Program-made: the position numbers and the translations under genes | Part shown: positions 5,566 through 33,246 of the stretch, in pieces | Layout: every line of letters begins with the position of its first letter | How positions within the stretch are numbered: the first letter of the stretch is position 1 | From: Eledone cirrhosa | Lineage: Eukaryota | Direction: 5' to 3' | Assembly: GCA_964016885.1 (NCBI GenBank) | Contig: CAXHJY010000074.1 | Coordinates: 1-35,397, forward strand | DNA length: 35,397 nucleotides | Notes under the pieces: generated by a model | Told to the model about the DNA's origin: nothing | The model's input: only the letters and a program-made list of their open reading frames with translations | Database searches by the model: none

Positions 5566-6018
5566 ACATATATATATATATTGATATATATATATATATA
5601 TTGATATATATATATATATATTGACATATATATATATATATATTGACATATATATATATATAAATTGATATATATATATATATATATTGACATATATATA
5701 TATATAAATTGATATATATATATATATATATTGACATATATATATATATATATTGACATATATATATATATAAATTGATATATATATATATATATATTGA
5801 CATATATATATATATAAATTGATATATATATATATATAAATTGATATATATATATATATAAATTGATATATATATATATATATATTGATATATATATATA
5901 TATATATATTGACATATATATATATATATATATATTGACATATATATATATATATATATGTTGACATATATATATATATATATATTGACATATATATATA
6001 TATATATATATATTGACA
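1..6018. repeat. Interrupted (TA)n microsatellite/minisatellite array with TAGACA, TTGACA, TTGACACA, CATTGACA and AAATTGATA interruptions
   Basis: Read directly: short (TA)n runs separated by recurrent GAC-containing motifs. It explains the spurious IY-repeat ORFs. Confidence 0.98.
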
Positions 6019-6579
6019 TATTTGGGAGCAAAGATTGGGAATACGGAAGATGATGTGGTTGAGAGGAAGAGCAAGGCCTGGGCAGCGTGCCACAGCTTGA
6101 GATCGGTGTGGAAGTCGGACCTTCGTAGAGACCTGAAAATCCGCCTCTTCATTGCTGTAGTGGAGTCTGTGCTGCTGTATGGGTCTGAGACTTGGACACT
6201 GACCAAGAGACTCACTCAGATGGTGGATGGGTGCTACACGAGAATGCTGAGGATGGCTCTGAACATTAATCAGTATACACTGAGGATGAAAAACTCAGAG
6301 CTGTATGGGAGCCTCCCAAAAGTCAGCTCAAAAGTGACACAGAGGAGACTGAGGTTGGCTGGACATGCTCACCGACATCCAGAGTTGACATTGCACTCCG
6401 TGCTCCTTTGGGAGCCCCTACATGGACACACTGGAAGAGGAAGACCAAGGTTAACATATGTTGATGCCCTAAGGACAGACACTGGTCTGTTGGAGACGCA
6501 GGACATGGCAGCGATAATGAGGGACAGAGACCGCTGGAGAGAACTCGTCCATGGATCTCGGGAATTTTACCCGCCTTAG
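6013..6579 (+). mobile_element. 5'-truncated non-LTR retrotransposon (RTE-like LINE), C-terminal region downstream of the RT core
   Basis: Open 188-aa frame with [33 protein letters not shown] and GRGRPRLTY motifs typical of RTE-clade C-termini. The stop TAG runs directly into ATAGATATATA. Confidence 0.9.
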
Positions 6580-13931: not shown

Positions 13932-14008
13932 AACTTTGTGGTTCAATGCATGGGGTTGCAGAACAATCATATTATTGTTCTGCAACCCATGCATTGAACC
14001 ACAAAGTT
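13932..14008. other. Near-perfect 77-nt hairpin (35-bp stem, one bulged G, 6-nt loop)
   Basis: AACTTTGTGGTTCAATGCATGGGGTTGCAGAACAAT-catatt-ATTGTTCTGCAACCCATGCATTGAACCACAAAGTT. Confidence 0.9.
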
Positions 14009-14009
14009 T

Positions 14010-14250
14010 TATGTATATTTATTTATATATATATTTATATTTATATTTATATATATTTATATTTATATATATATATATTTATATATATATATATTTATAT
14101 TTATATATATATATATTTATATTTATATATATATATATTTATTTTTATATATATATATATATATTTATTTTTATATATATTTATATATATATATATTTAT
14201 ATATATATATATTTATATATATATATATTTATATATATATATATTTATAT
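14010..14250. repeat. (TA)n/TTTA-interrupted microsatellite
   Basis: Read directly. Confidence 0.95.
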
Positions 14251-14307
14251 ATAAAATATTAAACAAATAATGAATAAACAATTCCTTATATTAAACAAAA
14301 AAAGTTC

Positions 14308-14456
14308 ATTATTTAACGATCGTTTCTAGGGTATATATGTGTTATAATTGGTATGCATATTCAACAGATCTATGTACAAAATTATACAAAATTATACAAA
14401 TTATCAAGATTAAATATACATACCTAACACATATATACGCCGTCTTCAGAAATAAT
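14308..14456 (-). ncRNA. Type I hammerhead ribozyme motif (mirror copy in the left palindrome arm)
   Basis: Reverse complement of 14471-14619. Confidence 0.75.
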
Positions 14457-14470
14457 CTTCAGAAATAATC

Positions 14471-14619
14471 ATTATTTCTGAAGACGGCGTATATATGTGT
14501 TAGGTATGTATATTTAATCTTGATAATTTGTATAATTTTGTATAATTTTGTACATAGATCTGTTGAATATGCATACCAATTATAACACATATATACCCTA
14601 GAAACGATCGTTAAATAAT
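14471..14619 (+). ncRNA. Type I hammerhead ribozyme motif with a 116-nt stem II
   Basis: AUUAUUU-CUGAAGA-c[long stem II: GUAUAUAUGUGUUA/UAACACAUAUAUAC; GGUAUGUAUAUUUAA/UUGAAUAUGCAUACC]a-GAAAC-GAUC-GUU^AAAUAAU. Stem I is 7 bp. Confidence 0.8.
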
Positions 14620-14812
14620 GAACTTTTTTTGTTTAATATAAGGAATTGTTTATTCATTATTTGTTTAATATTTTATCTTGACTCTGTATACCGTTTATCT
14701 TTCACCGAAAGTGGATCTTCATTACATCTCTTCTTTCCATGATATCCGGAATACATTGAGTTCTTCATACGGATTGGACACTACCGTAAACTCTTGGTAG
14801 ATTTATCTACAT
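14471..14812 (+). mobile_element. Penelope-like pLTR-type element with an inverted partial copy at its 5' side
   Basis: The hammerhead-bearing unit continues to GTAGATTTATCTAC and then into (TA)n. Inverted partial pLTR copies are characteristic of Penelope-like insertions. Confidence 0.6.
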
Positions 14813-14833
14813 ATATTTATATATATATATATT

Positions 14834-14866
<33 letters not shown>

Positions 14867-15790
14867 TTATATATTTATATATATATATATTTATATTTAT
14901 ATATATATTTATATATATATATATTTATATATTTATATTTATATATATATTTATATATATATTTATTTATATATATATTTATATATATATATTTATATAT
15001 ATATATATTTATATATATATATTTATATATATATATATTTATATATATATTTATACATACATATACATATTTATATATACATATACATATTTATATATAT
15101 ATATATATATTTATACATACATATACATATTTATATATACATATACATATTTATACATACATATACATATTTATATATACATATACATATTTATATATAC
15201 ATATACATATTTATATATACATATTATATTATACATACATATATATTTATACATACATATCATCATCACCGTTTTACGTCCGTTCTTCCACGCTAGCATG
15301 GGTTAGACGGGTTGTCCTGTTGTGGGCAGTGTCTGGTCGGCTGACCATGCCTTGCTCATACAGGAACTGATCTTTATACATATATATATATTTATACATA
15401 TATATATATATTTATACATACATATATATTTATACATACATATATATTTATACATACATATATATATATTTATACATACATATATACATATTTATATTTA
15501 TACATATATATATTTATACATATATATATATATTTATACATACATATATATATATTTATACATACATATATATATATTTATACATATATATATATTTATA
15601 CATACATATATATATAGATTTTTACATACATATATATATATATTTATACATACATATATATATATACATATATATATATTTATACATATATATATTTATA
15701 CATATATATATTTATACATATATTTATACATATATATATATTTATACATATATATATATATTTATACATACATATATATTTATACTTACA
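14813..15790. repeat. (TA)n/(TACA)n/TTTATACA microsatellite tracts
   Basis: Read directly; interrupted by the RTE end at 15259-15371. Confidence 0.9.
15259..15371 (-). mobile_element. 3' terminus of an RTE LINE (same family as 17294-17887)
   Basis: Reverse-complement match to ~17764-17876, including the (GAT)n tail. Confidence 0.85.
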
Positions 15791-17094: not shown

Positions 17095-17275
17095 ATATAC
17101 GGTTTCCTATATATATATATATAAGAAACCATATATGTTTATATATATATATATATAGGAAACCATATATTATATATATAGGAAACCATATGTTTATATA
17201 TATATATAGGAAACCATATAATGTTTATATATATATATAGGAAACCATATAATGTTTATATATATATATATATAA
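17095..17275. repeat. Minisatellite (TA)n-GGAAACCATAT
   Basis: About five units plus one inverted unit at 17101. One more unit follows the RTE insertion at ~17889-17905. Confidence 0.85.
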
Positions 17276-17293
17276 GCATATATATAAAGCATA

Positions 17294-17887
17294 AATGAAT
17301 TGAGAGAGAGACTGAGCATATGAGGAATCAAATGCTGTGTGCAAGAGAGGCGGTTGCATTGGTATGGACATGTGATGCGTATGAAGGATGACAGCTGCAT
17401 AAAAAGGTGCAGAGCACTAGAAGTCGATGGAAACTGCAGAGTGGGGAGACCCAAGAAGACCTGGGATGAGGTGATAAAAGCCGACCTTGTCCAATTACAC
17501 ATCTCAAAGGCGATGACACACGACCGTGACGCAGTAATACAGAAGACCCGACCTCCCACGGGTACAAGCCGAAGCTGAAGCATAGAGACAATATGTCCCC
17601 ACACCCTCCCACTGCAAAGTGGTCGTGGAGGTGCCACGGCAAAAAAGCACCCAGCCCACACTGTAAAGTGGACGTGTAGGCACCACGGAAAAAAAGCACC
17701 CAGCACTCACTGTAAATGAGGTTGGTGTTAGGAAGGGCATCCAGCTGTAGAAATCAAGCCAGAATCAGTTCCCATATGAGCAAGACAAGGTTAGCCGACC
17801 GGACACTGCCCACAATAGGACAACCCGTCTAACCCATGCTAGCGTGGAAGAACGGGCGTAAAACGGTGATGATGATGTTGATGATGC
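17294..17887 (+). mobile_element. 5'-truncated RTE LINE (C-terminus, 3' UTR and (GAT)n tail)
   Basis: QERRLHWYGHVMRM...GRPKKTWDEVIKADL. The UTR has internal CACTGTAAAGTGG..GCACCCAG repeats and the tail is GATGATGATGTTGATGATG. Confidence 0.9.
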
Positions 17888-21880: not shown

Positions 21881-21906
21881 TTATTATTCCTTATATATTA
21901 TTATTA

Positions 21907-21950
21907 TTCCGCCGAGGTTAACTTTGCCTTTCATCCTTACGGGGTCGATA
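21907..21950 (+). mobile_element. SINE central-domain fragment at the Gypsy junction
   Basis: TTCCGCCGAGGTTAACTTTGCCTTTCATCCTTACGGGGTCGATA. Confidence 0.7.
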
Positions 21951-23965
21951 CCCTCAGCGCCTCCGAGCGGAACGCTGCGCTGTTGTCCATCAGCAGTTCG
22001 TCCACAGGGCCCCGCTCCAAGAACACCTCTCAACGTCCGCATGATTTCCTCGGCCGTTCCAGTCTTCATCTCCCTCCATATCGCCATCCGTCCCGGTCCA
22101 CAGTCGACCATCGAGAGGTACGTTCCCTGTCGGTAGTGTGTTACATCCACCGCCAATCGCTTCCAGTCGCGATCCACCGGGAGGCTTCCCGTTTCGTGCA
22201 CACCCGGGGCAGGATCAATGGACTGACATCGGACGCAGCCTCTAACCACTCTTTGAACACTGTGTCTGTTAACGTCCGAGTCGATTCCCCTGGCTAGGAA
22301 CAGAGTTCTATCCACCCCCATGTGGTGCATGTCATGCAACCCTTTCAGATCCGACTCGGTCAGCCGACACACGGCAGCTATCTCCTCTGCTACCTCCTCC
22401 GGCGCTTCCATCCAGGCCTTCTTCACCCTGGTTAAAACGTCCGCCCTATTTTTCTCTGAGGGCACGAAAACTATGCTCAGCCTCAGGTCGAACTCGGTGG
22501 CCAGCTCTCCTAAAGTTCCCAGGCGGCGCTTTATCAGCATCTCCCCCCCCCCTCTCGTTCGCACTCTCTTCTCACTGGTGAGCACTGATCTCGTTCGCAC
22601 GCTCTTCTCACTGATCTCACCCATCCGAGTACAGTAGCTGAGTCGGTGCGTATCTCGATGGTGCACAGTCCCCACCTCAGGGCGAGGTTCACCCCTCTCA
22701 ACACCGCGTCCAGTCCGGCCACATTGATGTGGTTGCAGTCGTCCTTCTTCCTAAGCCAGGCTGCATCCTCGACCTCAACACCTCCTATCTCCAACGTGAC
22801 ACCCAGCGCTATGCTGCTGGCATCGCACCATACGGTCCCGCTCTGCGATTTGGGAACATGCACTGGGTCGTCGGCCTTAACCCTCTCCACGATCTCCTGC
22901 ATCATGGCCACCGTCCTCTCTCCCACTCTGTCACTCCAAGTCACCCTTCCCGCTCGTCTCTTGACATAGCTGCATGCCGTCCGGAGCCTCCCAGCAATCG
23001 GGTAGTGACCCACCAACTTTCCACACACCGAGAAAAGCTCCCGCCTACTCATACTTGGGCCCAGTTCTGGAACTTCATTTCCCCTCTGGAATACTAACAC
23101 GTCCGTCCTGTCTCGCCGTAGCCTAAGTCCCAGCGCGGCTCCTCCCTCCAACGCTTCTGACGGCTTCGCAGCCAGTCCATACCCCTGTAAATGGCTCGTG
23201 ACCTCCGCCGCCGACACTACAGACTCGTCCACTAGGATGTCGTCAATGTAGGAATTAGTGGCCTTCTTCATCTTGTCGTCCTTTCCCAGAATGGTCTTGA
23301 GGACCGCCGCCATGATCTTCGGTGCAGAGCTCAGCCCGAAACCGAGCCTGGTCAGGCAATATGTCCGGCCCTTATACCTGACCAGCTGATACTGCCAGAG
23401 CTTCTCATCTATATGTAATTGCAGGTATGCCGACTTTAGATCTACGATTGCGGAACCCCCCGTCATGCGTTTCCACTAACGCAGGGTTTCCCCACAGACA
23501 TCCGTGACCTCGCCACCCGTGTGGCATGACACGTGCTCGTTCAGCTCCCGAAAGTCCAGTACCGGCCTCACCTTGTTCTTCGTGGGTTGCGCCACCGCCA
23601 TTAACGGCAATACTCCGCACTTCACCCCCTCTTTCCAGGGAAGCAGTATGCTCTCCTCAATCCATCTCTCTACCTCTAACTCGAACTCTCTCCTAATGTC
23701 TCCCTTCAATGTGTGTTGATAGCAGCCCACTTTGGTCTTCAGTGTTGGTGGTTCTCCCTTCCAGTACCACTCAACAACCCATCGCTGCCCATCGAACACA
23801 GTCTTGAAGTATTTGTCCTGCACAGTGTAAGCGGGGTATTTCTCCTCGAGAGCCTTCAGGTTCTCCTGTCGCGTACTCACAGCGCATACCGATGCGGCGC
23901 CGCCAAACGACACACCGACGTTGTTCACTGTGACGCCTCTGAGACGGCCAATTGCGTCCAAGAGA
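21951..23965 (-). mobile_element. pol: Ty3/Gypsy LTR-retrotransposon pol fragment (RT, RNase H, integrase N-terminal part), pseudogenised
   Basis: RPVLDFRELN, VDLKSAYLQ, LGFGLSSAP, YIDDILV; RNase H WCDAS and RTDSATV; integrase zinc finger H..HH...C..C and WKRLAVDVTHY. In-frame stop at 23476-23478 and a frameshift near 22545-22620. No LTRs seen. Confidence 0.92.
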
Positions 23966-24641
23966 GTAAGTAGGGTTGTTGATGTTAAGAAGATTGTGAG
24001 CACTATAAATTTTATTCTTACCTTATTCCCTCGCTTTTAAGTGTTGCATCTCTGCCATAATTTCCATCTCCGTATCCGACACATTCAGCCACCAAAAATT
24101 ACATGACAGTTTTTTTTTCTAATGTCTGAACGCATGGTTAGTTCTTAAGAGTTTCTACTCTGATACCTTTAAAACTACTGAATCTAGAAAGTCCATTTTT
24201 TTAAAAATCAATGATTATTAATTAAATTATTGTTGTTGTATCTAATTATTTTCCTTTTTACGAATTTTGATTTTGTTTGTTTTGTTTTTTAAAATAAAAT
24301 ATTTAAATATTAAGTACACAACCAAACTTTATTCAACATGCCATGATATACGAGCTTTATGAAAATCAATAAAGAAATGCATGTGATAAATTTTCACATA
24401 CATAGGATACGTAGCAATACAATTTGTTTCTGATATTGGTGACTAATACTTCGCTAATGTAAAATACATGCAGATAACGATCACATCTTTTCAGAAAATT
24501 ATCATTTGTTTTCATTCGTTAAAAATGAATATTTTAAAGCTATTATGAAAGGAATTATTTAGTTGCTGTTTGGTCTCAGGTCAGCTCTGTTGGGGCAGGT
24601 CTATTTTGATCTGAGGCATCAACTGCGACCTGTATTATTAT

Positions 24642-29187: not shown

Positions 29188-29433
29188 ACTCTCTCTCACT
29201 CTCTCTCTCACTCACTCTCTCTCTCACTCTCTCTCTCTCTATATATATATATTCACACTCACTATAGTGTATATATATATATTCACACTCACTATAGTGT
29301 ATGTGTATATATATATATTCACACTCACTATAGTGTATGTGTAGATATATATATATACACACATACACTATAGTGAATGTGAATATATTTATATATATAT
29401 ATACACATACACTATAGTGAGTGTGAATATATT

Positions 29434-32748: not shown

Positions 32749-32859
32749 TTCATCCTATTGTGTGACCATTTTTTTCTATAGGTGATAGGAGGCAGAATTT
32801 GAACTCAGAATACTCAAAGCCAGAGCTTGTACCTACAAGTTATCTTATCCAACACTCTA

Positions 32860-33246
32860 ACAGTTCCACCTTGGACAAATACTTATTTCGGTCATCTTCA
32901 AAACTCTCCTTTCCTTTCCTATATTCAGCTGCCCACTTTTGCACTGTTGATAAAGCTGGAGCATCATCCCTTAATGTATCAACCATGTCAGCATGAATGT
33001 CCCTGGGAGCTAAACCTTTTTTTTTTTTTTGCAAGTTCTTAACACCACAATGCCAAATGTTGTCCCTTTTCAAGAGAAGTTGCTACTAGTTACTTTTGAA
33101 GTCTTCTTTGAACAGTCAGATATCAGTGTACCTGGAAAGAAAACAGTACATGTTATTAAAAAGAAGAGTTGAAATTAATGCATGCAAGATTTCACAGCTC
33201 TAGTATCACTCCTTCATAGTCAACCTAACTTTTCAGCCCACCCTCA
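32860..33246 (-). mobile_element. Mariner transposon 5' end: TIR plus transposase N-terminal HTH pseudogene
   Basis: KGLAPRDIHADMVDTLRDDAPALSTVQKWAAEYRKGKESFEDD. TIR TGAGGGTGGGCTGAAAAGTT preceded by TA (33247-33248). Confidence 0.88.

Follow-up and report, generated by a model that had tools for sequence, protein, structure and literature searches.

A head-to-head pair of truncated, hammerhead-bearing repeat ends inside a (TA)n microsatellite, probably of Penelope-like origin

How does a perfect palindrome with a hammerhead ribozyme motif in each arm come to lie inside a simple microsatellite, and what would its RNA do? The locus was analyzed within the window, i.e., the whole 35,397-nucleotide stretch of DNA under analysis, which is AT-rich, has the look of animal intergenic DNA, and contains long (TA)n tracts, a LINE-type reverse transcriptase (RT) fragment, a degraded pol region and a mariner fragment. 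The repeats of the window may resemble those of octopod genomes. As a first-pass annotation of this DNA had claimed, the two arms (14251-14456 and 14471-14676) were found to be exact reverse complements; the match covers 206 nt and goes no further outward. The spacer of 14 nt (14457-14470), which it had described as a duplication of the arm end, is indeed a 13-nt tandem re-copy of the end of the left arm plus one C. Among the exact inverted repeats of the window that are not of low complexity and have a spacer of <40 nt, the palindrome is the longest; its arms are 78% AT, and no other match to the arm unit was found in the window beyond the arms themselves. The features of the locus are collected in Table 1.

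Table 1. Features of the palindrome and its flanks (positions in the window).
Feature	Position	Strand	Remarks
Left flank, compound (TA)n microsatellite, target	14012..14250		25 TTT, 0 AAA
Left arm, inverted 5'-truncated copy	14251..14456	-	Stops at the shorter family 3' end (=14676), then (AT)n
Left-arm type I hammerhead motif	14308..14456	-	7-bp stem I; core 14449-14443; predicted cut after 14315; mirror of right arm and descriptor match
Junction	14457..14470		13-nt re-copy + C; 14469-14470 are also the family's native letters just 5' of stem I
Right arm, 5'-truncated copy, sense orientation	14471..14676	+	Depth in all four runs
Right-arm type I hammerhead motif	14469..14621	+	Descriptor match, fold, double-hammerhead cofold
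Stem II region, 116 nt	14485..14600	+	44 predicted pairs, 4 G.U; non-canonical base
Predicted decoy strand	14653..14662	+	Exact 10-nt complement of the stem I 3' strand (14613-14622); mirror 14274-14265
One-sided 135-nt tail to the longer family 3' end	14677..14811	+	Small stem-loop closes the tail (predicted fold)
Right flank, same compound (TA)n microsatellite	14813..15050		19 TTT, 0 AAA

The same compound (TA)n microsatellite lies on both sides of the palindrome in one orientation, and a target-site duplication was unreadable since this microsatellite surrounds the palindrome. Non-repetitive sequence of 136 nt adjoins the palindrome on the right side only. A second hairpin (13932-14008), with arms of 36 and 35 nt that differ by one indel and a 6-nt spacer starting with C, was observed 243 nt to the left; it is extended by ~45 nt on one side only (to about 13885), with (TA)n on the other, and may be a stub of the Penelope-like element (PLE) type from a different family in the same microsatellite cluster.

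Elsewhere in the window, a C-terminal LINE-type RT ORF fragment (5989-6579, + strand; DUF6451, below cut-off) lies between very long (TA)n-type tracts, and a GC-rich, broken pol-like region of LTR or DIRS type (21884-24036, - strand) matched DUF7047 above the cut-off, together with RVT_3 and a weak RVT_1. A mariner transposase HTH fragment (HTH_48, below cut-off) was seen at 32840-33082 on the - strand. Small TA-rich hairpins of tandemly repeated palindromic units occur at 17101-17164 and 29325-29376, and two near-identical short repeats in opposite orientation, ~2.5 kb apart (15260-15345 and 17790-17875), are probably SINE ends.

Within each arm, the core CUGAAGA was located at 14478-14484 (+) and 14449-14443 (-), with a third copy at 14462-14456 (-). 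The second half of the core, GAAA at 14601-14604, is separated from the first by 116 nt (14485-14600). It is followed by a palindromic stem III (14604-14611) of an A-U and a C-G pair with a GAUC loop, whose duplex is worth -10.0 kcal/mol, and by a GUU site with the predicted cut after U14612 (mirror 14315). The 7-bp stem I originally annotated holds for the left arm; in the right arm 14469-14477 pair with 14613-14621, which lengthens the stem to 9 bp. The breakpoints of the palindrome lie 7 and 9 nt upstream of the core. The complete hammerhead fold proposed for each arm was recovered as regards the core, stem III and the 116-nt stem II, whereas the base of stem II is non-canonical: in register it reads C14485.A14600, G/A14486-U14599, a G-C pair and C14488.C14597 before the long helix begins, and the minimum-energy fold slips this base by one nucleotide. 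The extra nucleotide after A9, a feature of minimal PLE hammerheads, is present as C14485; the G10.1-C11.1 pair conserved in PLE hammerheads is absent from the motif of the arms.

A relaxed hammerhead descriptor matched the window at the palindrome locus only, and gave 2 matches in 13.0 million shuffled bases. Folding of the ribozyme strand, as proposed at first reading, gave -47.2 kcal/mol and z=-6.7 (0/200 shuffles as good), compared with -32.8 kcal/mol and z=-4.5 for the opposite strand. The proposed search with Rfam went the other way: no hammerhead model occurred among the 150 of 183 window matches listed, and when 14457-14812 was searched up to E=10 only two matches were returned, both to miRNA models below their cut-offs, on which ground a miRNA reading was rejected. 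Taken together, each arm is predicted to hold a type I hammerhead motif with a 116-nt stem II.

To place the repeat among public sequencing runs, 14471-14812 was used as the query; 23 runs were listed, with part of the query found in 20 of them (16 studies) and at least half of its words in 4. These RNA-free 23 runs say nothing on expression. Four of them were compared with 14457-14812 at 80% likeness, 13 runs with a small share being left out: X1 (contigs of organism A, possibly the window's own source and so not independent support), X21 (raw reduced-representation reads of organism A from a separate study), X5 (organism B) and X7 (organism D). Family members were found in 1,448 contigs of X1, 4,937 reads of X21, 30 contigs of X5 and 10 contigs of X7. 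Judged by these sequence matches, the repeat belongs to a family that is dispersed in many copies and occurs under at least three organism labels.

One common sequence continues 5' of 14469 in 273 reads of X21 (agreement 0.91; depth ~717), and the upstream continuation was also seen in contigs of X1, X5 and X7, together with loose ends before 14469 in all four runs. Longer family copies thus run upstream of 14469, and both arms are therefore 5'-truncated. At the other end, a shorter 3' end at 14676, followed by (AT)n, was found in 405 X21 reads and one X5 contig, and a longer 3' end at 14811, followed by (CA)n, in four X1 contigs. The palindrome as first annotated ends at 14676; because X5 contig 15 (depth 43) spans 14649-14812, the segment 14677-14811 is also part of the element. 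The left arm terminates at the family 3' end 14676 and the right arm, with its tail, at 14811.

The listed rows show no accumulation of family 5' ends at 14469-14471; 74 X21 molecules end at 14471, which may represent one locus. The positions in X21 at which many reads start or stop coincide with what we take to be restriction-type sites and were not accepted as ends of an RNA or of the element. No element ends at the cut site (14612/14613) appeared in the 23 of 192 loose-end rows listed, and no tandem (going-back) joint among the four joints listed; a single opposite-strand joint, 14550/14678 (72 reads, one start), was too weak for use.

Five alleles common to both arms are minority alleles in X1 (shares 0.42, 0.34, 0.24, 0.06 and 0.43), which implies that the arms were drawn from one template or were homogenised. 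The insertion had been called very young; its 206 identical pairs only bound the age, at 1.5-7 Myr or less under assumed rates of 5e-9 to 1e-9 per site per year. Conversion from arm to arm could erase differences between the arms.

Variation among the copies was then compared with the predicted fold. Variants were listed at 19 positions of 14469-14621 (drawn from 40 of 62 rows listed), of which 8 keep the predicted pair, 5 are unpaired and 6 break a pair singly. None of the 19 falls in the core or stem III, the base at the cut site is U or A only, and the sole listed stem I variant yields a G.U pair. Among the pair-breaking positions, 14489 regains a partner through the U that is in the majority at 14596, and 14486 can pair with U14599 when the base of stem II is in register; 14502 sits at a 1-nt indel, and 14516-14517 belong to a subfamily with another distal loop; 14564 has neither explanation nor rescue. 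Conservation of the core among copies, on which the first-pass annotation had made its ribozyme depend, is thus upheld in that no listed variant touches the core or stem III, and qualified in that invariance of the core by itself is not significant (p=0.20); once stems I and III are counted in, p=0.01 (listed here are 40 of the 62 variant rows). Two CpGs of the core and stem III have no listed change while a CpG at 14746-14747 changes, and the changes at 14486 and 14489 are themselves of CpG type.

In some subfamilies 84-86 nt of distal stem II are missing or the distal loop is a different one (14500-14587), with the proximal helix kept, and one alternative distal loop is common to organisms A and B. 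A>G changes outnumber T>C in the four runs (8:2, 10:5, 4:1 and 2:1; p 0.015, 0.043, 0.097 and 0.37) in a T-rich stretch. A-to-I editing of RNA intermediates could account for the excess, but G.U tolerance would do so equally well and the unpolarised comparison is not significant (p ~0.1), so that an editing imprint was not accepted.

No ORF with a start codon was found in 14471-14812, where the longest frames contain stops, and Pfam gave no match for 14743-14814. A 6-nt deletion (14626) and a common 9-nt insertion (14648) among family copies, both inside the loop of the predicted decoy hairpin, are multiples of three, yet no coding frame with a start codon accompanies them. Pattern scans returned 0 matches in viral_contigs and 0 in genome_contigs (prokaryote); three matches in metagenome_contigs, of 21 nt only each, were rejected as chance. 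No RT/GIY-YIG ORF was found among the 76 ORFs listed for the window (7 examined by domain scan), and the repeat is a putative PLE member, judged by its insertion layout.

On the sequence evidence above, the locus is best described as two 5'-truncated ends of a hammerhead-bearing, high-copy repeat family that lie head to head within a (TA)n microsatellite. In the accessible part of PMC3846280, PLE insertions are described with head-to-head inverted pLTRs, junction palindromes and a one-sided tail, and self-priming is proposed; PMC8557442, as far as available, reports tails of 30-40 nt and microsatellite targets. The two 3' ends, the one-sided tail and the microsatellite flanks match this published pattern, in agreement with the PLE-type inverted insertion of a hammerhead-bearing end put forward in the first-pass annotation, and a PLE-type origin of the palindrome, by either of the routes considered below, is highly probable. 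According to the available text of PMC11167929, a PLE protein cuts AT-rich DNA on both strands and extends each, starting at two internal sites, the interval between them being the tail; the reaction uses uncleaved RNA, and the PLE hammerhead needs protein.

We infer that a PLE reverse transcriptase/endonuclease made two cDNAs here, probably in one event, a route to which we give about an even chance. The enzyme would nick both strands of the microsatellite, and one cDNA would start at each family 3' end, 14676 and 14811, primed on the microsatellite strands, with one uncleaved RNA or two identical RNAs as the template. Both cDNAs would halt at the 5' edge of stem I. One of them would slip back and re-copy 13 nt, which would produce the templated spacer, and the two would be joined head to head over 0-2 nt of microhomology, leaving identical arms and a tail on one side. 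The left cDNA would end at the equivalent of 14471 twice, before and after the 13-nt slip, which suggests a hard stop at that point. The central C could be the family's own letter preceding 14471 or have been copied from a cap; the sequence is compatible with both.

The main rival is a fold-back, in which one cDNA from 14811 stops at the edge of stem I, primes on itself and copies itself, with an endonuclease cut or resolution at 14676. Identical arms with common minority alleles, arm starts within 2 nt of one another and a spacer templated from the arm itself would all be expected of such a product; junction palindromes are taken as signs of self-priming in the accessible part of PMC3846280, and the tail is ascribed to endonuclease-mediated resolution in that of PMC8557442. 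Against this, the inner palindrome offers a loop of 1 nt and only 0-2 nt of native complementarity for priming, and copying must halt exactly at 14676, a position that the mechanism in the available text of PMC11167929 would make the second start site. Two cDNAs from two 3' ends account for the exact end of the left arm more simply, and the inversion by fold-back that had been proposed at first reading is not established; we regard it as rather unlikely. Less probable still is a family of retrozyme-like or SINE-like non-autonomous repeats lacking a PLE body of its own, or an ordinary single copy from which DNA break repair later made an inverted duplicate. The repeat is a short non-coding unit at very high copy number, with no ORF bearing a start codon, and templated re-copies at junctions typify microhomology-mediated repair, which counts for the break-repair version; a stop at the family's own 3' end would not be expected of repair. 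Animal retrozymes have type I hammerheads in units of 150-450 bp (PMC7229834, accessible part), and retrozymes have been proposed to derive from pLTRs (10.64898/2026.07.22.740005, accessible part). Set against a retrozyme are the lack of a tandem array in the window and of a going-back joint among the four listed, as well as listed 3' ends that run into microsatellites and not into a next unit; a non-autonomous family would, moreover, probably still be moved by a PLE enzyme.

The perfect identity of the arms and the low-complexity repeats that flank the region could also be the mark of a sequencing or assembly artefact (a fold-back read or chimera), and the tip of the palindrome is absent from the listed reads and contigs, with no joint or spanning piece among 24 of 1,505 pieces and 23 of 192 loose-end rows listed. 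Perfect hairpins drop out of PCR libraries, and absence from reduced-representation reads says little. An artefact is very improbable, since the inversion is limited to 206 nt and ends exactly at a biological family end, only one of the flanks carries a tail, and both microsatellites run in the same direction (TTT/AAA 25/0 and 19/0), where a fold-back read would mirror the flank. A MITE or foldback DNA transposon was rejected: in all four runs other copies continue upstream of 14469 in common, non-inverted sequence, and there are no fixed TIR ends.

In the two-cDNA reading, the hammerhead would be a passenger of the insertion. The first-pass annotation had supposed that a transcript of the locus must choose between hairpin and ribozyme. 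A read-through RNA is predicted at -336 kcal/mol as a long hairpin and at -171 kcal/mol with the ribozyme forced, so that the choice is far from balanced (~165 kcal/mol in favor of the hairpin), and an RNA prefix ending at 14621 gives -239 kcal/mol as a hairpin against -85 kcal/mol with the ribozyme forced. Because the hairpin is so much the more stable, the locus, if transcribed through, is predicted to be a source of dsRNA and not a switch; its read-through transcript would bury the hammerhead in the long hairpin, and the ribozyme would not form. The DNA hairpin of the palindrome is also stable (-221 kcal/mol), making cruciform extrusion possible.

For a single arm, the calculated probability of stem I is 0.95 in an RNA ending at 14622, falls below 0.1 by 14640 and is <0.01 at 14676; in an RNA starting at 14471 it never exceeds 0.014. 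The strand 14653-14662 pairs with the stem I 3' strand with a predicted probability of ~0.6 in an RNA ending at 14676. It has no listed family variant, while its neighbors 14652 and 14663 vary, and the 10-mer was present in 158 of 20,000 shuffles of 14623-14676, a test set up after the decoy had been noticed. In a cofold of two units, the double-hammerhead topology reached -110.8 kcal/mol compared with -96.0 kcal/mol for two monomers. From these models we infer that a single arm would be active only as a double hammerhead through the palindromic stem III, and that the downstream decoy helix would switch it off, holding it inactive in RNAs that run more than ~20-50 nt beyond the cut site.

A more far-reaching joint reading can be built on these predictions and is, as a whole, improbable. 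It would make the repeat an undescribed PLE-type element with a gated hammerhead of 116-nt helix II, a start at the cap end, divergent RNAs and a record of editing. The hammerhead would act in trans as a double hammerhead, escaping Rfam and the published descriptors; a conserved decoy beside the start of reverse transcription would shut the ribozyme and so keep the template intact; and the capped RNA 5' end would be A14471, where both cDNAs would run off, with the central C copying the cap. If it were true, such palindromes would give rise to divergent sense transcripts, two of them annealing into an active double ribozyme, and the A>G excess seen across copies would preserve the trace of past A-to-I editing in the long stem.

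The 116-nt helix II, the 135-nt one-sided tail and the decoy helix are the features that stand out; they were not found described in open-access full texts, and the supplements of PMC4209133 and PMC8557442, subscription papers or repeat databases may hold the family. The spacers of published hammerhead descriptors cover 7-17 and 35-50 nt (PMC8557442, available part). As the family lies outside both Rfam and these spacers, the number of hammerheads in some animal genomes may have been underestimated. What the hammerhead does in PLEs and how the inverted ends arise are not settled in the accessible parts of PMC3846280, PMC8557442, PMC11167929 and PMC4209133. With its many copies, sharp 3' ends and 135-nt tail, the family would allow a genome-wide table of junctions that could separate fold-back from two-cDNA priming, and the decoy helix makes it possible to ask directly why protein-free PLE hammerheads are poor cleavers.

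Compared with known systems, the animal non-LTR retrozymes (PMC7229834; 10.64898/2026.07.22.740005; both as far as available) are alike in an AT-rich, non-coding unit of ~340 bp, a type I hammerhead and high copy number, and one axolotl retrozyme family has a mismatch at the base of helix II too. Retrozymes are head-to-tail tandem arrays, whereas the palindrome is head-to-head, dispersed and microsatellite-flanked, with no tandem joint among the four listed. Retrozyme membership by tandem units was rejected, as only the two arms match in the window; a unit of >356 nt is possible elsewhere in the genome.

The minimal PLE hammerheads in the accessible part of PMC4209133 have a palindromic helix III, depend on dimers and cleave poorly in vitro, and are sometimes paired on opposite strands 100-700 bp apart. 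The motif described here resembles these minimal or small-helix-III metazoan PLE hammerheads in its type I topology, the extra nucleotide after A9, the palindromic helix III with loop 3, the predicted dimer dependence, the high dispersed copy number and the opposite-strand pairs. It differs from those described there in its helix II region (116 nt versus 6-8 bp), in a helix I of at least 9 bp versus 2-5 bp, in having no G10.1-C11.1 pair and in the downstream decoy for helix I.

The endonuclease-positive PLEs (Penelope/Poseidon and Neptune) differ in that no ORF lies between or beside the repeats of the palindrome, in a tail of 135 nt here versus 30-40 nt there (PMC8557442, accessible part), and in that the arms of the palindrome are of equal 5' extent with a 13-nt re-copy as the spacer. 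A hammerhead together with a microsatellite target would fit the Neptune clade, going by the available text of PMC8557442. The likeness to these PLEs extends to head-to-head, 5'-truncated copies of ~200 bp, a junction palindrome, a one-sided extension, two alternative 3' ends, an AT-rich or microsatellite target and a hammerhead in the repeat; by this comparison, the palindromic layout is the published PLE insertion pattern, and the locus appears as debris of a known kind.
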